From a virus, in IMG/VR virus record IMGVR_UViG_3300027863_000702, positions 1 to 11,144 of that record: 11,144 nt of DNA; one strand, written 5' to 3'. The stretch's first letter is position 1; every line of letters starts with the position of its first letter. The notes beneath the pieces were generated by a model that searched no databases, had not been told where the DNA came from, and saw nothing but the letters and a program-made list of their open reading frames with translations. Both the position numbers and the translations under genes were made by a program. Below, piece after piece: positions 1 through 11,144 of the stretch.

Positions 1-127
1 GGATTAAAAGATGATGATTTTGTTGATGGATATGAACAGATTTAAGTTATTCGGTTTACCGAAAGTCTTAAAAAGTTCGGTTAACTGCTTTAATGCATGG
101 TTAACGAAGCAGAATTAAGAGACCGAA
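1..127. repeat. Terminal direct repeat, copy 1 (identical to 11018-11144). Circularisation overlap or terminal redundancy.
   Basis: Base-by-base comparison of 1-127 with 11018-11144 shows 127/127 identity. It contains the last 45 nt of CDS 10646-11062, a promoter, and the first 31 nt of CDS 97-483. Confidence 0.97.
50..81 (+). promoter_or_regulatory. Class-A archaeal-type BRE/TATA promoter (ACCGAAAGTCTTAAAAAG, 58-75) embedded in TTCGGT/ACCGAA/TTCGGT inverted repeats
   Basis: ACCGAAA starts 39 nt upstream of the ATG at 97. The same motif recurs at 1622, 2526 and 10343 at 38 nt from an ATG. The hexamers TTCGGT (50-55), ACCGAA (58-63) and TTCGGT (76-81) bracket the TATA element. Confidence 0.6.
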
Positions 128-3849: not shown

Positions 3850-4002
3850 TTGTTCCTTGACTTCTTTTATTTTAACCCCTACATTAACCGCTATTTGGGC
3901 CGCTAAACTCTCAAAATTAGCCCTTTTATCTTCTGCCTGCTTTATGCTGTCAATTATTCGCCATATGGCCTTATTTATTCTCTCAGTTTTGCTTTGATAC
4001 AT
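3790..4002 (-). CDS. Small winged-helix-like DNA-binding protein (70 aa)
   Basis: Helical N-part, then LAAQIAVNVGVKIKEVKEQLETFEKAGLIEIKDGEI, which looks like a wHTH recognition helix plus wing. It is coupled to the upstream RHH gene (2-nt gap) with a GGAGG SD. Confidence 0.6.
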   Translation of the reverse strand: MYQSKTERINKAIWRIIDSIKQAEDKRANFESLAAQIAVNVGVKIKEVKEQLETFEKAGLIEIKDGEIFM

Positions 4003-4004
4003 CT

Positions 4005-4421
4005 TTATTCACCTCCTTTCATCTTTTGGTATTCTTTAAAGGCATTAAGAACTTGTTCATAAGTTATGTTGTATTTGAAATAGAGGTTTTTGTATCGGTT
4101 TAGCAAGCTTTGTTCGGTTAATGAAGGAAAAGAGCGAAAATCCTCTAAAATTTCATTTGGTAAGTCTCTAAATACTTCTCTCATTTGTTCTTTTTTCTTT
4201 TTAATTATTTCAAGCGCTTCTAAGGTCTGTTTTAACTCCAATTCTTTCTCAGCTATTTCTTTTTTCAAAGTTATTACATTCTGCTCCAAATCTTTCTCTT
4301 TTAAATCATCTCCAGACAAAAAGAAGTTTTTCAATAATTTTTCAATTAAAGCTGATGTATTGGTTTCTTTTAATTTGTTTATTAATTGTTCATCTAAATA
4401 GATAGTTGTTATTTTTTTCAT
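4005..4421 (-). CDS. Ribbon-helix-helix (CopG/Arc/MetJ-like) transcriptional regulator with long coiled-coil C-domain (138 aa)
   Basis: The N-terminus KKITTIYLDEQLINKLKETNTSALIEKLLKNFF fits a beta-strand/helix/helix RHH pattern. It is the first gene of the only minus-strand operon and diverges from the non-coding control region. Confidence 0.65.
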   Translation of the reverse strand: MKKITTIYLDEQLINKLKETNTSALIEKLLKNFFLSGDDLKEKDLEQNVITLKKEIAEKELELKQTLEALEIIKKKKEQMREVFRDLPNEILEDFRSFPSLTEQSLLNRYKNLYFKYNITYEQVLNAFKEYQKMKGGE

Positions 4422-4444
4422 GTCTAAATAAGTGTGTGTGTTTG

Positions 4445-4459
4445 TATTTATAAATATTT
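4445..4459 (-). promoter_or_regulatory. Class-B TATA promoter for the minus-strand RHH operon (minus strand reads AAATATTTATAAATACAAACACACAC...ATG)
   Basis: TTTATAAATA ends 23 nt upstream of the ATG at 4421, with no SD. It shares TATAAATACA followed by a CA/CG alternating tract with the promoter at 5135. Confidence 0.55.
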
Positions 4460-4476
4460 CTATTTTCTATTATATA

Positions 4477-4617
4477 TTTTTTTTATTTTTTTTTATTTTT
4501 TTATTTTTTTAGGCTATTTTATTTTTACAAAAAATTATTTATTTAATAAATAAATAAATAGGATTTTGATTAATGTTAATTCCTTAAAAAAAATAAAAAA
4601 AGAAAAAATAAAAAAAA
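4477..4617. repeat. A/T-tract inverted repeat around a 23-nt palindrome. Putative replication origin / DNA-unwinding element.
   Basis: T8-A-T9-A-T7-A-T7 (4477-4510) is mirrored by A8-T-A7-G-A6-T-A8 (4586-4617). The perfect palindrome TTATTTATTTA-A-TAAATAAATAA (4535-4557) lies between them. No ORF is present. Confidence 0.5.
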
Positions 4618-4675
4618 TTTCCCTTTCTGAGAACCCTTAATTTGCGCATTATTTTTTTTGTTTTTGGGTATTAAC

Positions 4676-4736
4676 GCGCCTCGCAGGCCACTTTATCCGG
4701 CATATCTAAAGATATGCCTGTGGCCATGCTCGGCGC
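4676..4736. other. 61-nt composite GC-rich hairpin (hairpin 0)
   Basis: Pairings: GCGCC (4676-4680) with GGCGC (4732-4736); GCA with TGC; GGCCAC (4686-4691) with GTGGCC (4720-4725); GGCATATCT (4699-4707) with AGATATGCC (4710-4718). Confidence 0.6.
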
Positions 4737-4828
4737 TAATAAGCCTTATAAAGCCCATATATGAGGTTTTTAGGCTTTTTGGCTTTTTTGAATTTTATGA
4801 TTTTTTTGGATGGTTTTTAGGGGGACTT

Positions 4829-4883
4829 AGGCTTTTTGCGAAAAAAGAGGGGGTTAGGGGGTGAATTTTTTCGCAAAAAGCCT
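4829..4883. other. Hairpin 1: perfect 18-bp AT-rich stem with 19-nt loop GAGGGGGTTAGGGGGTGAA
   Basis: AGGCTTTTTGCGAAAAAA (4829-4846) is the exact reverse complement of TTTTTTCGCAAAAAGCCT (4866-4883). The loop at 4847-4865 is identical to the loop of hairpin 3. Confidence 0.85.
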
Positions 4884-4928
4884 TTATAAGCCGTAAAAAT
4901 GCAATATAAGGGGGTTTTGGTATGTTAC

Positions 4929-4979
4929 GCCAAAGCCCCGGAATAACAAAGGGGGTTTAAAGATGTCCGGGGCTTTGGC
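4929..4979. other. Hairpin 2: perfect 14-bp stem with 23-nt loop containing AAGGGGGTTT
   Basis: GCCAAAGCCCCGGA (4929-4942) is the exact reverse complement of TCCGGGGCTTTGGC (4966-4979). The loop is ATAACAAAGGGGGTTTAAAGATG. Confidence 0.85.
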
Positions 4980-4984
4980 AATAA

Positions 4985-5025
4985 CCCCGGCGCAAGAGGG
5001 GGTTAGGGGGTGAATTGCGCCGGGG
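4985..5025. other. Hairpin 3: perfect 11-bp GC-rich stem with the same 19-nt loop GAGGGGGTTAGGGGGTGAA
   Basis: CCCCGGCGCAA (4985-4995) is the exact reverse complement of TTGCGCCGGGG (5015-5025). The loop is at 4996-5014. Confidence 0.85.
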
Positions 5026-5040
5026 GCTATTTTGGCCTAA

Positions 5041-5098
5041 AAGGAGCGGAGCGAAGCGGAGCGACGAAGCAAGGGGGGGAAGGAAAGGATAGGGGGGT
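5041..5098 (+). repeat. Purine-rich block with a tandem 10-mer AGCGGAGCGA x2 (5045-5064), a G7 tract (5073-5079) and a G6 tract (5092-5097)
   Basis: Read directly: AAGGAGCGGAGCGAAGCGGAGCGACGAAGCAAGGGGGGGAAGGAAAGGATAGGGGGG. Apart from its C residues, the + strand contains only a single pyrimidine (one T). Confidence 0.8.
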
Positions 5099-5134
5099 CC
5101 TCACGGACAAATTTTTTAAAAATAAAAACAAAAA

Positions 5135-5150
5135 GTATAAATACACGCAC
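5135..5150 (+). promoter_or_regulatory. Class-B TATA promoter (GTATAAATACACGCAC) for the HNH-terminase-portal operon
   Basis: TATAAATA ends 29 nt upstream of the ATG at 5173. It shares TATAAATACA plus an alternating CA/CG tract with the divergent promoter at 4445. The spacing is slightly longer than in class A, implying a short leader. Confidence 0.45.
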
Positions 5151-5172
5151 ATATTAAATAAATAAACCAAAA

Positions 5173-5526
5173 ATGAAAGAAAAAAGAGACGACATAACAC
5201 CAGATTACAGAATTAGACGAGAATTAAGAATGCTGTGGCTAAAATCACGAGAAAGAAGCGCAGCATTAAAAAGAGCTAAATATTGCTGTGAAATCTGCGG
5301 CGTTAAAAGAAGCGAAGCAAAAGGAAAAGAACAACCTATAGAAGTACATCATAAAGAAGGAATTGAAAATTGGGACAAAGTGATAAAAACAATAAGAGAA
5401 GAGATATTATGCGAACCAGAGAAGTTAATTTGCGTATGCCCAAGATGTCATCAAAAACTTCATAACAAAAAGCTAACTTATGAGGACTTAATAAAAAATG
5501 AAGGCAATAAGGAACAGGTTTTGTAA
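5173..5526 (+). CDS. HNH endonuclease (117 aa), packaging-associated
   Basis: CCEICG ... IEVHHKEG ... CVCPRCHQKLHN gives two CxxC pairs flanking the HH / H..LH beta-beta-alpha-metal core. It lies directly upstream of the large terminase, as in cos-type HK97-like phages. Confidence 0.85.
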   Translation: MKEKRDDITPDYRIRRELRMLWLKSRERSAALKRAKYCCEICGVKRSEAKGKEQPIEVHHKEGIENWDKVIKTIREEILCEPEKLICVCPRCHQKLHNKKLTYEDLIKNEGNKEQVL

Positions 5527-5629
5527 AAGATGCGGTAAAATATTCCAAGCAAGAACAAAATATAGCTATATATGCCCTAATTGCCAAAAACCAAGAGGTT
5601 ATACAGCGTGGAAAAAAAATAAAAAATGA
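5498..5629 (+). CDS. Zinc-ribbon miniprotein A, 43 aa (CxxC-N12-CxxC), between HNH and TerL. Possible DNA-recognition (small-terminase-like) factor (not in ORF track).
   Basis: Hand translation, verified codon by codon: MKAIRNRFCKRCGKIFQARTKYSYICPNCQKPRGYTAWKKNKK. GAGGA lies upstream. The start overlaps the HNH 3' end by 29 nt. The stop TGA overlaps the TerL ATG (ATGA at 5626-5629). Confidence 0.6.
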   Translation: MKAIRNRFCKRCGKIFQARTKYSYICPNCQKPRGYTAWKKNKK

Positions 5630-6906
5630 TTGGGAACATTAAACTTGATGATTGGCAAGAAAAAATTGTTAATTTAGGATTAACAGGCAATAAAAACATA
5701 GCAATAAGAGCAGGGCGGCAGGTTGGAAAATCAACAGCCATAGCGGTTTTAGCTGGAGAATTTGCGGTTAAAAACGAAGATAAGGTTATAATGATTATTT
5801 CAGCTGTAGAGAGGCAAGCCTTTTTGCTTTTTGAGAAGGTTTTAGAGTTTATTGACGATAGATATAGCCAGATGGTTACATGGGGAAAGAATAAGCCGAC
5901 CAAAAGCCAGCTAACCTTAAAAAACGGCTCAAGAATATATTGTTTGCCGACAGGATTAGACGGCTACGGAATAAGAGGCTATACAATAGACCTTCTTATA
6001 GCTGATGAAGCAGCGTATATAAACGATGATGTTTTTAATGCCATAACGCCTTCTTTAGCAGCCAGAAAAAACGCGAAAATTGTTCTTTTATCAACGCCGT
6101 TCGGCAGAGAGGGCTATTTTGCAAGAGCATTTAACGACCCAACTTTTGAAACATTTCACATAACAAGCGAAGAATGCAGCAGAATTAACAAGGAATTTTT
6201 AGAGCAAGAAAAAAAGAGAATGACGAAAAGGCAATATATGCAGGAATATTTAGGAGAGTTTATAGATGAATTATTGCAGTGGTTTCCAGATCAGCTTATA
6301 AAAGAATGCATGAAACGAAAGCGACCAGAAAAAATAAACAAAAATGAAAATTACTTTTTAGGGGTTGATTTGGCCAGAATGGGCAAAGATGAGACAACCT
6401 TCGAAATTGGATTTTTAGCAGAAAATAAGAGAATAATCCAAGTTGAGAACCTTATAACGAGGAGGACAAGATTAAACGAAAGCGCAAAAATGATTTTAGA
6501 GCTTGATAAGATTTATAACTTTAGGAAAATATACATAGATGATGAAGGAATAGGAGTTGGAGTTTATGATTTCCTTTTGGAAAATGAACAAGTTAGAAGA
6601 AAGTTAACAGCCATTAATAATTCTAAACGTGTTTTGGACTTGGAGGGAACATCAAGAGTTAAAATCTTGAAAGAGGACCTATATAATAATCTTTTAAGGC
6701 TTATGGAAACAGGACAAATAGAACTTTTAGATGACCCTGAAATATTTCAAAGCCTGAAAAGCGTTCAATATGACTATACAACGGACAGCTTAGGGAGAAG
6801 TCACCTTAAGATATTTGGTAATTACACACACATCGCAGAAGGGCTTATAAGATTGGGTTGGTGTATTAAAGAAAAAGGTTTAAATATTTGGGTTAAGTCA
6901 ATATAG
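5626..6906 (+). CDS. terL: Terminase large subunit (426 aa)
   Basis: Walker A is AGRQVGKST. Walker B is IDLLIADEAAY. The coupling motif is LLSTPFG. The C-terminal RNase-H-like nuclease shows acidic motifs FLGVDLARMGKDETT and IYIDDEGIGVG. Confidence 0.9.
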   Translation: MIGNIKLDDWQEKIVNLGLTGNKNIAIRAGRQVGKSTAIAVLAGEFAVKNEDKVIMIISAVERQAFLLFEKVLEFIDDRYSQMVTWGKNKPTKSQLTLKNGSRIYCLPTGLDGYGIRGYTIDLLIADEAAYINDDVFNAITPSLAARKNAKIVLLSTPFGREGYFARAFNDPTFETFHITSEECSRINKEFLEQEKKRMTKRQYMQEYLGEFIDELLQWFPDQLIKECMKRKRPEKINKNENYFLGVDLARMGKDETTFEIGFLAENKRIIQVENLITRRTRLNESAKMILELDKIYNFRKIYIDDEGIGVGVYDFLLENEQVRRKLTAINNSKRVLDLEGTSRVKILKEDLYNNLLRLMETGQIELLDDPEIFQSLKSVQYDYTTDSLGRSHLKIFGNYTHIAEGLIRLGWCIKEKGLNIWVKSI

Positions 6907-6907
6907 T

Positions 6908-7270
6908 ATGACTGAAACCTTATGCGACAGCGGAGCAGTTAAGATAAAAGCAGGAGCAAATGCCGCAACATTAACCGCTGCGCAATACACGGACATCATA
7001 AACAGGGCTGAAGGCTTTGTATGTGCAGCCGCAAGATACGACTTTATAACAAATTACAGCAATATATCCACTATAGGGAAGAATTTTTTAAAAGACGTTA
7101 CGAGCTCTAAAGCGGCCATAGAGGTTATAAATTATGACATGTCAGGCTTTACATCACGAACTGAGGCGCAGGTTATGCTTGATGTTAATTACAATATATT
7201 AGTTGACGGAATAAACTTATTAAGAGACGAGAAATTTAGAAGCTTTATAATAAGCGGAGAGGTGGCATAA
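6908..7270 (+). CDS. Hypothetical structural protein (120 aa), possibly a gp6-like head-tail adaptor/connector
   Basis: The start is 1 nt after the TerL stop and the stop overlaps the next ATG (TAATG). The size and the AQYTDIINRAEGFV...Y segment are loosely reminiscent of head-tail connector proteins. The functional call is weak. Confidence 0.5.
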   Translation: MTETLCDSGAVKIKAGANAATLTAAQYTDIINRAEGFVCAAARYDFITNYSNISTIGKNFLKDVTSSKAAIEVINYDMSGFTSRTEAQVMLDVNYNILVDGINLLRDEKFRSFIISGEVA

Positions 7271-7920
7271 TGGCTGATTTGATGAAAAAAAAGAGCTTTT
7301 TAAGAAGCGGAGAAGGCGCAATAGCGAGCTATAACTATGAAGACATAGCTTCAGGCAGCGGAGTTATTGTTTTTTACGCTTTAGAAGCGAGTACATCAAC
7401 AAACGGCTCAAACGAGCAAGCAAAATATTTTTTAACAACTGAGAGAATTAAATCTAAAGACTATTACACGCAGTATACAATACCGGGCGGAAATTGGTGT
7501 AAATTTTGCGAATTTTCATTTGATAGTTTGCCTTTTAATACAAAAAGAATTTTAAACGGAAGGTGTTATTTTTCGCCATTGTTCAAAATTGATACCAATG
7601 AGTTAAGTGTTTATGCAACTATTACTCTTATAAAATATTCTAATTCAACAGAGGAAATTTTAGGAAGTGTTCAAAGCGGAGTAATAGCAGGGGGGGGCAA
7701 GTATAAAAGGCCTACAACTTATTTAGACATTTCAAATGTAGTTTTTAAAAAAGGGGATCTATTAAGAATAAAATTTGAAGGGTATGGCCACTATGGTGGC
7801 GGGTCGGCTTCTGCATGGTTTTATTATGATGGATACGGCAGAGGATTACCGGCAGATATAGAAGGAAACACAGAAACAGCAGACAGCATATTTTACATAC
7901 CTTTTAAAATAGATGTATAA
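7270..7920 (+). CDS. Beta-rich hypothetical virion protein (216 aa). Candidate vertex/tail-stub or receptor-binding protein.
   Basis: GAGGTGG SD. Aromatic/Gly-rich beta-type composition with no recognisable family. It sits between TerL and portal and contains a G8 homopolymer at 7690-7697. Confidence 0.55.
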   Translation: MADLMKKKSFLRSGEGAIASYNYEDIASGSGVIVFYALEASTSTNGSNEQAKYFLTTERIKSKDYYTQYTIPGGNWCKFCEFSFDSLPFNTKRILNGRCYFSPLFKIDTNELSVYATITLIKYSNSTEEILGSVQSGVIAGGGKYKRPTTYLDISNVVFKKGDLLRIKFEGYGHYGGGSASAWFYYDGYGRGLPADIEGNTETADSIFYIPFKIDV

Positions 7921-7926
7921 AACAAA

Positions 7927-9012
7927 ATGACAGAATTAGATGTAACAAAAGCAAGCGCAACAAACATTTATAGCGGAAGCGATTGGAATATTGAGGAATA
8001 CGAGACAGAGGCGCAGAGTTTAGAGCATGGCGAAGCCGACGAGGTCGTTGTAACATTCCCTAAGGCAGCCGAATATTTTGGGTATTATAAAAAGTATGGC
8101 CAGTTAAAGAAGGCTATTGACACACTCTGGTTGTATGTTGTGGGAAAAGGTTATGAAGTAGACCCTGAAACTAAAGTGATTTTAGAGCATATAACTGGAT
8201 TTGGGGAGGACACTTTTGTATCGATTTTGTGGAATATGGGGGTGGTGTCAATGATACAGGGCGACGCCTTCGCTGAAATTGTGAGAGATGACAAAACAGG
8301 AAAACTCATAAATTTAAAGCCTATAAGTCCAGAAAGAATGAGAATAATTTATGGCTCTAACGGACTTATAAAAAGATATGAGCAGGTTACCAAAGACAAA
8401 ATAATAAAATGGAACAAAGAAGAAATATTTCACATAAGAAACGACGCAATAGCTGATGAACAAAGAGGAACTTCAGTTATTGAAAGCTGTAAATGGGTTA
8501 TTGACGCCATAGAGGAAGCAAGGAGAGATTATAGGATAGTTCTACATAGAAACGTCGTACCTTTGAGAATTATTGAGATTGATACGGACGACACGGCAAA
8601 AAGAAATAGCTTGATGCAGGAATACAAAGATGCCATACAAAAAGGTGAGGTTTTAGTTATTCCAAAGGGAACCGTTCAAGTAACAGAAACGGCAATAAAT
8701 GTTCAAGACCCTTTAGGTTGGATACAGAGTTTAGAGAATTACTTTTATTTGGCTGTAGGCATACCGAAAACAATAGCCAACCCTGAAGGAGTAAGCGAGG
8801 GAACCTCTAAAATAGGTTATCTGATTTTTGAGCCAATTTATAGCTTCAGGCAGACTTTAATGGAAGCTGATATTTGGAACCAGCTTTATTTCAGGATTAA
8901 ATTCAACAGGCCGGCCTCTTTAGTGGACAACATAACAACTAATGAGGCAAAAAATACCAGTCAATTAGGCTTCCAACCTAAGGACCTATATGTAAATTTA
9001 AACAGGGAGTAA
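7927..9012 (+). CDS. Portal protein (361 aa)
   Basis: The size and position are in the packaging operon. The segment GEDTFVSILWNMGVVSMIQGDAFAEIVRDDKTGKLINLKPISPERMRIIYGSNGLIKRYEQ resembles the conserved N-terminal region of HK97/SPP1-type portals. An acidic-rich central helix region follows. Confidence 0.75.
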   Translation: MTELDVTKASATNIYSGSDWNIEEYETEAQSLEHGEADEVVVTFPKAAEYFGYYKKYGQLKKAIDTLWLYVVGKGYEVDPETKVILEHITGFGEDTFVSILWNMGVVSMIQGDAFAEIVRDDKTGKLINLKPISPERMRIIYGSNGLIKRYEQVTKDKIIKWNKEEIFHIRNDAIADEQRGTSVIESCKWVIDAIEEARRDYRIVLHRNVVPLRIIEIDTDDTAKRNSLMQEYKDAIQKGEVLVIPKGTVQVTETAINVQDPLGWIQSLENYFYLAVGIPKTIANPEGVSEGTSKIGYLIFEPIYSFRQTLMEADIWNQLYFRIKFNRPASLVDNITTNEAKNTSQLGFQPKDLYVNLNRE

Positions 9013-10645: not shown

Positions 10646-11062
10646 ATGGAGTTATATGTTATTGCCGGCGGACAGATGGATAGCCTTAACCGATGGCAAC
10701 AAGACTTAAATTCTGTTTTTTTGCCCATTTATAAAAACGGAAAAAAGGTAAAATATGAGGAAGGTGGATTAACGCATAGGCGGTTATTGGTTGCTCCTGT
10801 TCAGCTGTTCAAAATATGCTTCCCTAAAGAAGAGCTTGAAAATGTGATGTCTATGGTTTGCCCGACGGATTATATAGAAAAAAAATATAGTGTAATAAGA
10901 AAAAGCATAATGTTTTTAAGGAAAATTTTGCGCCTAAAAAAAGCTCCAGAACCTAAATATTTAAATCCTTTTCTACAGCCTAATCAAGTAGATAAAGCTG
11001 TTTTTGTTGTACCTATAGGATTAAAAGATGATGATTTTGTTGATGGATATGAACAGATTTAA
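10646..11062 (+). CDS. Hypothetical protein (138 aa), head-module position. The last 45 nt are duplicated at 1-45.
   Basis: The open frame starts 1 nt after the previous stop. I recognise no family. Confidence 0.55.
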   Translation: MELYVIAGGQMDSLNRWQQDLNSVFLPIYKNGKKVKYEEGGLTHRRLLVAPVQLFKICFPKEELENVMSMVCPTDYIEKKYSVIRKSIMFLRKILRLKKAPEPKYLNPFLQPNQVDKAVFVVPIGLKDDDFVDGYEQI

Positions 11063-11144
11063 GTTATTCGGTTTACCGAAAGTCTTAAAAAGTTCGGTTA
11101 ACTGCTTTAATGCATGGTTAACGAAGCAGAATTAAGAGACCGAA
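11018..11144. repeat. Terminal direct repeat, copy 2 (identical to 1-127)
   Basis: Same as copy 1. The repeat begins inside CDS 10646-11062 and ends 31 nt into a second copy of the 97-483 gene. Confidence 0.97.

Follow-up and report, generated by a model that had tools for sequence, protein, structure and literature searches.

REP/BIME (REPIN), Correia and BOX sequences are multi-copy intergenic hairpin repeats that often lie at gene 3' ends, form inverted pairs and are also found in mobile DNA; the REP stem is conserved, with a 5' tetranucleotide of the GTAG type, while its loop is free. In the CsrB/RsmZ sponges, clustered hairpins and linkers repeat one short, G-rich motif that resembles a ribosome-binding site, A(N)GGA, on stems that are mutually unrelated. 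Integron attC sites keep their structure while their sequence varies, fold as single strands, delimit cassettes and are known in many phyla; they have been reported in Archaea as well. RNAs with quadruplex-duplex junctions, of the Mango and Spinach type, and the G-rich loop of ColE1 RNA II have a stem capped by closely spaced G-tracts, and in the junction RNAs purine residues (GA...GAA) flank the tracts. Phages, in turn, carry RNA mimics of host RNAs, among them pseudo-ToxI of phage phiTE and the solitary repeats that serve as RNA anti-CRISPRs. The hairpins described here have features in common with each of these systems.

The window analyzed is the whole 11,144-nt stretch of IMG/VR record IMGVR_UViG_3300027863_000702, which holds an 11,017-bp circular mini-phage genome; the assembly is circular through the hairpin region, and its 127-bp end overlap lies elsewhere. 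The only long non-coding region, at 4422-5172, separates a leftward gene (4005-4421) from a rightward HNH-TerL operon. Its features are as follows.

4430-4620, unstranded: extremely AT-rich stretch (12-22% GC) forming the left part of 4422-5172, with the cumulative GC-skew minimum nearby
4676-4738, unstranded: long imperfect hairpin with a GCGCC..GGCGC outer stem and a GGCATATC/GATATGCC tip
4770-4781 and 4827-4838, + strand: two copies of a local 12-mer, TTAGGCTTTTTG, the second of which includes the start of the hairpin 1 5' arm
4790-4807, + strand: GAATTTTATGATTTTTTT, resembling by eye GAATTTGATTTTT, the block that precedes the CPR G-loop hairpin
4817-4825, + strand: unpaired TTAGGGGGA, directly preceding hairpin 1; the CPR 'A2' copies have this motif as their single-stranded G-run
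4829-4883, + strand: hairpin 1, arms 4829-4846 and 4866-4883, an AT-rich 18-bp stem that is 100% complementary
4847-4865, + strand: loop of hairpin 1, 19 nt, GAGGGGGTTAGGGGGTGAA
4907-4915, + strand: unpaired TAAGGGGGT between hairpins 1 and 2
4929-4979, + strand: hairpin 2, arms 4929-4942 and 4966-4979, a perfect 14-bp stem
Between these arms, + strand: loop of hairpin 2, 23 nt, containing AAGGGGGTTT, with a single G-run, AAGGGGGT, at 4949-4956
4985-5025, + strand: hairpin 3, arms 4985-4995 and 5015-5025, a perfect, GC-rich 11-bp stem
4996-5014, + strand: loop of hairpin 3, 19 nt, identical to the hairpin 1 loop
5043-5070, + strand: GGAGCGGAGCGAAGCGGAGCGACGAAGC repeats, which include GCGAAGC at 5051-5057
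5073-5117, + strand: G7-N12-G6 tract pair, then ..GGACAAATTTTTT, immediately upstream of the HNH gene

About 210 nt hold two full modules, one hairpin with a single G-run and two unpaired G-runs; the hairpin cluster has the sense orientation of the HNH-TerL late operon and precedes it by 150-350 nt. GGGGG occurs 23 times in the window, always on the + strand.

The first-pass annotation had reported three perfect hairpins and an identical 19-nt loop in the first and third, and both observations proved exact. Its statement that the stems of hairpins 1 and 3 have no similarity is true of most of the stem only: the identical segment is in fact the 23-mer AAGAGGGGGTTAGGGGGTGAATT, which reaches into each stem by 2 nt, so that the closing A-U pairs are common to the two hairpins and the remaining stem is unrelated. 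Two copies of the 19-mer, and no more, are present in the window even with 3 mismatches allowed; it is in 0 of 200 dinucleotide shuffles. Perfect hairpins with a stem of at least 11 bp and a loop of at most 30 nt are limited to these three in the whole window; whole-window shuffles contain a mean of 0.245 (maximum 2) and shuffles of 4620-5172 a mean of 0.018. Folded singly on the + strand, hairpins 1, 2 and 3 have z-scores of -7.1, -5.5 and -4.6. A covariance model, R1, which was built from CPR copies, matched hairpin 1 at 4827-4883 (42.9 bits, E 2e-5) and hairpin 3 at 4986-5024 (41.8 bits, E 3e-5). The concern that the region might be a chimeric assembly insert was dismissed because separately deposited contigs agree with the window: those of a 97-99% variant (L002/L139) carry the same hairpins, and another (L120) equals the window over both hairpin regions examined. 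Within the three hairpins, only the hairpin-2 loop differs between the window and the variant (L002/L003), and the flanks of that loop show indel differences in this near-identical genome.

Collections were searched with the exact 19-mer, so that its invariance among the copies is partly by construction; it was found at 45 metagenome and 48 genome loci. At about 25 AT-rich loci, on metagenome and MAG contigs of the CPR/DPANN type, the 19-mer is the loop of a hairpin, with 21 distinct flank pairs and about 17 unrelated stems. When 15 non-redundant copies were aligned with RNAalifold, 8 of the 9 pairs showed compensatory double changes. This covariation, together with the same loop on so many stems, supports the original view that the hairpins are a selected structured element and not a simple duplication. 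Only a few loop-independent copies were recovered, and many of the CPR copies are related to one another. One loop-independent copy found with R1 (L159, 2097-2245) has the loop GAGGGG-AACTAAA-GGGGTGAA, and two G-runs are likewise retained in the variant loops of L001 (G6-N20-G6) and L117 (G6-TTGCA-G6). Most occurrences of the module are in non-phage chromosomal contexts. On a Micrarchaeota contig it lies next to a tRNA-Pro gene, and tRNA and tmRNA scans gave no link to the hairpins except at the L184 hairpin, which has a tRNA-Pro about 190 nt upstream.

Thus the arrangement is the reverse of that in REPs, the loop being invariant and the stems unrelated. It also differs from that of CsrB/RsmZ: the motif is (U)UAGGGGG(U) or GAG5UUAG5UGAA in 19-nt loops, A(N)GGA is not repeated in the loops and linkers of the window, where GGA is only incidental at 4817-4825, and the module is also found singly in chromosomal repeats. 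Rfam 15 returned only sub-threshold chance matches for 4000-5600 at E<=10 (best 23.7 bits, against a gathering threshold of 52), and no Rfam family matched the elements in phage relatives, CPR loci or class-B loci. A full-text literature search on the loop sequence retrieved no paper describing the element, nor did we find anything relevant in the literature on CPR structured RNAs and phage G4 hairpins, in keeping with the first-pass remark that no such architecture had been described. Two further sets of matches were put aside. A degenerate loop scan (GAGGGGGNNNGGGGGTGAA) of viral contigs gave 91 matches, nearly all to one unrelated family of gut phages with a TAA variant and no flanking inverted repeats. 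Class B, TCCCCCTCTCC-N5-7-GGA[19-mer]G, belongs to GC-richer genomes of many phyla and forms a different hairpin: there, a C-run further upstream is the pairing partner of the first G-run; it was treated as a separate family.

Among mini-phages, the presence of the module is variable. The hairpins are missing in six contigs of five relatives (L189, L190, L191, L193, L195, L196), whose TerL is 64-70% identical to that of the window and in which the rest of the region's character is kept; the block common to the mini-phage relatives is the G-tract block at 5073-5117, not the G-loop hairpins. A second mini-phage with the module, L001, carries it on the opposite strand relative to TerL: its loops and downstream homopolymer tracts are all flipped together, with C-runs on the TerL strand. 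Inversion of the whole segment does not explain this, since the flanks CCGACGTT and ACAAAATTTT keep their orientation and only the G/C features switch strand. The same three-hairpin layout is seen in the non-coding region of L117, which encodes a rolling-circle Rep (PF23343). The best match of TerL among GenBank phages is only 31% identical (Halogranum tailed virus 1), so that there is no cultured relative from which to borrow biology, and a blastn search with the region found nothing among GenBank phages.

These comparisons bear on the proposal, made in the first-pass annotation, that the hairpins are a cos or pac site recognized by HNH/TerL (HK97-like packaging), which is the least probable of the explanations that we weighed. 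The region does lie directly upstream of HNH, zinc-ribbon and TerL genes and forms a GC-rich island within an AT-rich genome. Contigs of several relatives also break here (L190, L194, L196, L004, L120), although the breaks coincide with G/C homopolymers, as in L196, which ends inside a G-run, and a technical cause is at least as likely. The absence of the hairpins from relatives with so similar a TerL argues against cos/pac function or HNH recognition, as do the opposite orientation in L001, the presence of the module in many non-phage loci and the assembly of the window as a circle through this region. The family-conserved G-tract pair at 5073-5097 would be a better cos candidate.

We also regard as unlikely, though less so, a replication origin or priming signal, in which single-stranded DNA or a primer transcript would extrude the hairpins (the G4-type/ssi or ColE1 RNA II models), with the GCGAAGC mini-hairpin and the G tracts as part of the signal. 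No replication protein, Rep or primase was recognized in the window, of which this is the only long non-coding region, and the neighboring 70-aa wHTH protein has a weak 'replisome organizer' match. A 12%-GC stretch, a turn in GC skew and the iteron-like TTAGGCTTTTTG repeats are adjacent, and the Rep-encoding L117 has the same layout. The heptamer d(GCGAAGC) is an unusually stable DNA mini-hairpin that has been reported at phage origins. However, most copies of the module are in chromosomal intergenic spacers, at several per 8 kb, which is not origin-like, and the relatives without hairpins retain everything else that characterizes the region. Furthermore, the + strand of the window lacks CCCCC and hence a C-run partner for a ColE1-type interaction with the G-loops.

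CPR chromosomes carry the module within a repeat of ~110-300 nt, of which it forms the terminal hairpin; the repeat resembles a small-RNA gene and, unlike a REP, has a structured 5' domain. The repeats stand in alternating orientation around defence and accessory cassettes (AbiE, DRT, DGR, Fic, viperin-like), as is the case in 9 of 9 multi-copy loci; four elements lie within 8 kb in L159, and L119 and L128 come from different parts of a single 847-kb contig. Some elements are back-to-back, joined by a palindromic connector. The CPR elements therefore resemble REP/BIME in having many intergenic copies, often as inverted pairs. By eye, their 5' domains are flanked by RYYYAAC/GTTRRRY-like boxes (GCCTAAC...GTTAGGT, CGCTAAC...GTTAGCG). 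Beyond the putative R' box there is a conserved core of 100 nt, and the variable insert hairpins have tetraloops of the GNRA/UUCG type. In the variant copies termed A2, the hairpin is replaced by a single-stranded UUAGGGGGU followed by a canonical terminator; nine of these, found with R1 independently of the loop, have a single-stranded (TT)AGGGGG. This replacement of the hairpin by a single-stranded G-run and a terminator suggests that what matters functionally is the exposed G-run. The G-run was also considered as the ribosome-binding site of a conserved small ORF, and this was rejected because the downstream ORFs (12-27 aa) are not conserved.

What the phages have in common with the CPR elements is only the hairpin, plus flanking motifs noted by eye. 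The hairpin at 4676-4738, with a 2x2 internal loop that is TC/TC in the + strand and GA/GA in the - strand, may be the counterpart of the 5' hairpin domain, judging from a by-eye comparison. GAATTTTATGATTTTTTT at 4790-4807 received no score under R1. A scan of IMG/VR viral contigs for the CPR-element core gave 71 chance matches, none of which R1 confirmed. The phage hairpins lie between divergent operons, unlike the CPR copies at gene 3' ends in many loci.

The chromosomal contexts are relevant to a possible role of the hairpins as a transcriptional insulator or terminator cluster, stable structures that would stop read-through, with the CPR copies acting as REP-like bidirectional terminators or 3'-end stabilizers. 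In 11 of 18 CPR cases the hairpin end of the element abuts the 3' end of a convergent gene (~0-60 nt), and at the corresponding position A2 copies have canonical terminators. We nevertheless consider this very unlikely. Scans of 4000-5700 showed no promoter or terminator beyond chance (the terminator scan gave 0 sites), there is no T-run after hairpins 2 or 3, the loops are 19-23 nt long as against 3-8 nt in terminators, and the invariance of the 19-nt loop sequence would be left unexplained.

A selfish or recombinational DNA repeat (MITE-, REP- or attC-like), inserted in the phage non-coding region and without function for the phage, is a possible explanation, if not a likely one; the CPR copies would then be cassette ends or recombination handles. 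Such a repeat would fit the patchy presence among mini-phages, the opposite orientation in L001 and the spread over unrelated replicons (a tailed phage, the Rep-encoding L117, CPR chromosomes and a Micrarchaeota contig). It would also fit the dense elements that alternate around cassettes, some of them back-to-back via the palindromic connector, and the RYYYAAC/GTTRRRY-like boxes of the 5' domains. Yet a conserved loop on variable arms is the reverse of what arm-binding recombinases or transposases need, and no transposase, integrase (IntI included) or RAYT was seen in the loci examined. With regard to attC, R boxes are absent from the G-loop hairpin and from the surroundings of the window hairpins, similar ones having been noted, by eye, only in the 5' domain of the CPR elements, and attC arrays are co-oriented whereas these elements alternate. 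Finally, the terminators, the tetraloops and the G.A/G.U patterns speak for a transcribed RNA, and the two identical loops with perfect stems, unchanged in the variant genome, suggest maintenance over decay.

Since the phage stems are perfectly Watson-Crick paired, they are uninformative on the folding strand and on RNA versus DNA. Among the copies, G.T pairs outnumber A.C pairs on the G strand by 9 to 4, a modest excess, tandem G.A 2x2 internal loops are found in 9 of 21 hairpins, and variant copies have canonical intrinsic terminators downstream of the G-run, on the G strand. The folded strand is probably the G-rich one, and the molecule is probably RNA. With its G-quadruplex option, ViennaRNA predicts a two-tier quadruplex in each 19-nt loop (~-8.6 kcal/mol per loop), and the energy of 4815-5030 is -99.0 kcal/mol with this option and -81.8 kcal/mol without it. 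In contrast to the Mango and Spinach cores, these would be natural, multi-copy genomic elements with only two, predicted, tiers per loop. A single loop has only two G5 runs and so lacks the canonical three-tier G4 motif; the A2 copies have one G-run, and thus no intraloop quadruplex is possible in them. Equivalence of the A and A2 copies would mean that the essential feature is something other than the quadruplex.

The reading that we tentatively favor is that the window hairpins are copies of a portable module, the G-loop hairpin, which is common to AT-rich CPR/DPANN-type genomes and their mobile elements, and in which the displayed G-runs are the ligand. The stem would be free to vary, serving only to hold A-GAG5-UUA-G5UGAA-U single-stranded. 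The G-runs might act as a Shine-Dalgarno-like ligand complementary to the 16S 3' tail, or be bound by a G-run-binding factor; alternatively or additionally, they might fold into a two-tier quadruplex cap. The clustered phage copies would compete for, or recruit, a host factor that acts on the chromosomal elements, and could also form very stable roadblock or 3'-end structures. As with the known phage RNA mimics, a short structured unit is present both in the phage and in defence loci of hosts; the host elements do not belong to one system but lie on the flanks of defence cassettes of many kinds, and the mimicry is putative. We think it quite improbable, more so than an origin, that the module is a quadruplex-capped or otherwise specifically recognized RNA or ssDNA unit of undescribed small-RNA-like inverted repeats that control CPR/DPANN defence cassettes, and that mini-phages and small plasmids carry it as a mimic to neutralize, or plug into, the system acting on those repeats.

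If the G-loop hairpin is such a portable module, it would represent a new family of structured elements specific to CPR/DPANN, in which the stems vary freely while the G-rich loop of 19 nt stays the same, and it would occur both in host defence-island repeats and in tailed phages that are the smallest known from these habitats. Uncultured mini-phages and plasmids could then be linked with their hosts through it; it would also be a candidate for an RNA mimic or decoy in the conflict between phage and host, and a natural example of a quadruplex-capped hairpin. Even as a dispersed repeat, it could be used, through R1, to map cassette boundaries in CPR genomes.

The strongest ribosome-binding site of the phage is AAAGGAGGTGAATAAAG-ATG, to which AGGGGGUGA is similar. 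A central G stands where the Shine-Dalgarno consensus has A, which is unexpected from selection for anti-SD pairing alone. Repeats of the GAGCGAAGCG type are enriched on the same strand as the G features, and 11 of 20 loci have motifs of the GGAGCGGAGCGAAGCGGAGCGACGAAGC class beside the G-loop hairpin on its own strand, with a density of 3.12 per kb near the hairpin, compared with 0.57 elsewhere and 0.41 on the other strand.

Three perfect inverted repeats were found, by sequence reading and with a repeat finder, exactly where the first-pass annotation had placed them:

4829-4846/4866-4883, + strand: hairpin 1, 18-bp stem
4929-4942/4966-4979, + strand: hairpin 2, 14-bp stem
4985-4995/5015-5025, + strand: hairpin 3, 11-bp stem

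Hairpins 1 and 3 carry the same 19-nt loop, GAGGGGGTTAGGGGGTGAA, as had been reported. The further claim that their stems are unrelated fails at the closing A-U pairs, which are shared, but holds for the rest of both stems; in the repeat finder the identity runs 2 bases into each stem and gives a 23-mer. Allowing up to 3 mismatches brought up no further match to the 19-mer in the window, and it was absent from 200 shuffles. Hairpins 1-3 are the only perfect hairpins in the whole window with a stem of at least 11 and a loop of at most 30, whereas shuffling yielded on average 0.245 such hairpins across the window and 0.018 across the region, and each of the three folds far better than its own shuffles (z -4.6 to -7.1).

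The two ends of the window (1-127 and 11018-11144) are an identical 127-bp overlap, which makes the window a complete, circular 11,017-bp assembly. It encodes an HNH protein, a zinc ribbon, TerL, portal, a cement/scaffold protein, a capsid protein, a Laminin_G-type protein and small DNA-binding proteins; none of its genes was recognised as coding for a replication protein. Most TerL relatives lie on contigs of 11-12.7 kb, so the phage belongs to a family of very small tailed phages. It has no cultured relative, and the best TerL match among GenBank phages (31%) is an archaeal virus. The hairpins occupy the sole long non-coding region (4422-5172), which has a leftward gene on one side and the rightward HNH-TerL operon on the other; along it GC climbs from a 12% stretch at the start to 57%. 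GGGGG matches 23 times in the window, always on the + strand; 13 of these matches, making up ten separate G-runs, fall in 4820-5097. Iteron-like TTAGGCT(A/T)TTT(T/G) repeats occur at 4509-4520, 4770-4789 and 4827-4838, the last of which overlaps the beginning of hairpin 1's 5' arm.

The exact 19-mer was present at 45 metagenome and 48 genome loci, which flank analysis sorted into two classes. In class A (~25 AT-rich loci, including MAG contigs labelled Peregrinibacteria, one labelled Micrarchaeota and one contig encoding a rolling-circle Rep) it forms a hairpin loop, and about 17 of the 21 distinct flank pairs are unrelated stems. RNAalifold on 15 non-redundant copies gave nine pairs, eight of them with compensatory double changes. 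Most copies were retrieved through the exact loop sequence, and the invariance of the loop therefore needs loop-independent support. Many class A stems contain a tandem G.A 2x2 internal loop (GC-GA-G...C-GA-GC), and on the G strand G.T pairs outnumber A.C pairs by 9 to 4, which hints modestly that the G-rich strand is the one that folds. Within 300 nt of the hairpin, GAGCGAAGCG-type motifs show a roughly 5-fold enrichment on the same strand. In the window, an imperfect 63-nt hairpin (4676-4738) has a 2x2 internal loop that reads TC/TC on the + strand; read on the - strand it is tandem GA/GA, the arrangement of the CPR G-loop hairpin stems but on the opposite strand. Class B, from GC-richer genomes of many phyla (Chloroflexota, Bacteroidota, Planctomycetota and others), was set aside as a different hairpin, since its first G-run pairs with an upstream TCCCCCTCTCC. 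Its motif, TCCCCCTCTCC-N5-7-GGAGAGGGGGTTAGGGGGTGAAG, includes the same 19-mer (loci L141-L188 and L096-L140; e.g. L155 4820-4865) and sometimes lies near inverted partners (CCTCACCCCC...CCCCTCTCC); these loci had no match in Rfam.

The Rep-encoding contig L117 (6.9 kb, with its ORFs of 100 aa or more all on one strand and a rolling-circle Rep, PF23343) repeats the layout of the window: a G-loop hairpin, a plain hairpin, a second G-loop hairpin with the loop GGGGGGTTGCAGGGGGGAA, GAGCGRAG repeats and G-runs.

152-1405 and 6500-6911: Rep and non-coding layout of L117

An origin or priming signal would fit this Rep, a phage without recognised replication genes, and the location, AT-rich flank and iteron-like repeats of the window hairpins; it is at odds with the many chromosomal copies, and we regard it as unlikely.

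These chromosomal copies belong to a conserved element in CPR contigs, of which the G-loop hairpin is the last of five parts:

part 1: 5' hairpin domain, a covarying long-range stem with tetraloop-capped inserts
part 2: GTTAG-NN-GATGTACATTTTT
part 3: small hairpin
part 4: GAATTTGATTTTT
part 5: G-loop hairpin

Conservation ends directly after the G-loop hairpin. R1, a covariance model of the element core, recovers both window G-loop hairpins (E ~2-3e-5). The further copies that R1 finds independently of the loop sequence include one with the loop GAGGGG-AACTAAA-GGGGTGAA and nine variant (A2) copies ending in a single-stranded (TT)AGGGGG, followed by either a terminator-like hairpin with a T-run or a gene. 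Given these loop-independent copies, the exposed G-run is the constant feature and the hairpin is one mode of displaying it. A terminator or insulator would account for the gene-end positions in the CPR loci and leave the loop unexplained, and is quite improbable.

The elements can be dense (four in 8 kb of contig L159) and alternate in orientation. Inward-facing pairs, whose ends have ~100-110 nt in common, tightly bracket gene blocks in 9 of 9 multi-copy loci, and some elements stand back-to-back via a palindromic connector. The bracketed genes are of accessory or defence type: AbiEi/AbiEii, a UG21-type defence RT, a complete diversity-generating retroelement (DGR), Fic, a viperin-like radical-SAM protein, a methyltransferase-like protein and an APH kinase. 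The DGR lies within one cassette of contig L129 (249-3938):

249-1130, - strand: RT
1644-1775: TR
2105-2236: VR, at the 3' end of a 614-aa gene

The two copies of this 132-nt repeat mismatch where the TR copy has adenines, the pattern expected of a TR/VR pair. The connectors in L129 (5480-5545) and L119 (8819-8968) are a palindrome, GTTGTGCGG...CCGCACAAC, whose arms supply an RYYYAAC-like box for each flanking element and appear attC-like in sequence. A repeat of selfish or recombinational nature that had entered the phage genome would explain the attC-like boxes in the 5' domains and a patchy, orientation-free distribution; this is doubtful, since a conserved loop with free arms does not fit and the loci showed no mobilising enzyme. 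A search of IMG/VR viral contigs did not recover the full core, and what phages share is the hairpin module only, plus some flanking motifs recognised by eye.

Within the phage family, a 97-99% identical variant (L002/L003/L139) has hairpins 1 and 3 unchanged, and only the hairpin 2 loop differs, by indels. In the relative L001 (TerL identity 48%), the exact 19-mer sits on a different stem of 9 bp, a second hairpin has the loop GAGGGGGG-N20-GGGGGGTGAA, and an outer stem encloses both of them; TerL is on the other strand. The G-loop hairpin is absent upstream of HNH in six contigs from five relatives with TerL identities of 64-70%, in which this region is still GC-rich and hairpin-rich. These absences and the opposite strand in L001 speak against the terminase-linked role suggested in the first-pass annotation. 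Directly before HNH lies a family-wide block, CCGACGTT...[G7-8]-N-[G6-8]...ACAAATTTT (G tracts G6-8 overall):

window 5073-5117: G-tract block
L191 8925-8985: G-tract block
L193 8258-8310: G-tract block
L195 988-1040: G-tract block
L196 11550-11583: G-tract block
L001 6515-6560: G-tract block, tracts as C-runs, flank orientation unchanged

As the L001 tracts are C-runs between unflipped flanks, all G-rich features move together on one strand. The block may act as a family-wide signal, as a cos site, an origin or a promoter. Its conserved G-tract pair at 5073-5097 is a better candidate for such a signal than the hairpins, for which a cos/pac packaging function is the least supported rival and very improbable. 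Pairing with the G tracts is conceivable for the C-run loops that some relatives have upstream (a loop of C7 in L196, a run of C13 in L191). Several relatives' contigs end in the region upstream of HNH, one of them within a G-run; such ends are as compatible with homopolymer sequencing trouble as with genome ends.

The G-loop hairpin is thus an invariant-loop module with variable, covarying stems and strand-linked G features, present in hosts and mobile elements and, in the phage family, patchy and variable in orientation. Because A2 terminators lie on the G strand, and given the tetraloops and G.A/G.U patterns, we infer that it functions in single-stranded form, most likely as RNA, with a stem that would serve solely to display the G-runs. 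Two compatible ideas may explain the loop. It could be a Shine-Dalgarno-like ligand: both halves look Shine-Dalgarno-like, and in our pairing analysis, made on the standard 16S 3' tail rather than a host sequence, AGGGGGUGA would form a duplex with UCACCUCCU that includes one G.U pair. AGGGGGUGA is also similar to the strongest ribosome-binding site of the phage itself. It could also be a quadruplex cap, as ViennaRNA with the G-quadruplex option predicts a two-tier quadruplex (GG.GG...GG.GG) in each loop, with a gain of ~8.6 kcal/mol per loop. The phage has seven G5 motifs in ~210 nt on the sense strand upstream of the late operon, and we tentatively propose that this cluster may be a decoy for, or recruit, a factor recognising the chromosomal elements. 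An Rfam check matched no described family to the CPR elements, in agreement with the first-pass view that this architecture had not been described. The element is known in kind, as a dispersed structured intergenic repeat or small-RNA-like element that mobile DNA also carries; its inverted logic (loop invariant, stems free), its association with defence-cassette boundaries in CPR genomes and its sharing with mini-phages are new within that kind.

Elsewhere in the phage genome, the window and variant L003 differ at 188 positions in the ~750 nt of 7250-8000, inside a 216-aa ORF (7270-7920), versus 1-15 positions per 250 nt outside this interval; by its sequence, the ORF appears to be a localised hypervariable or mosaic gene.
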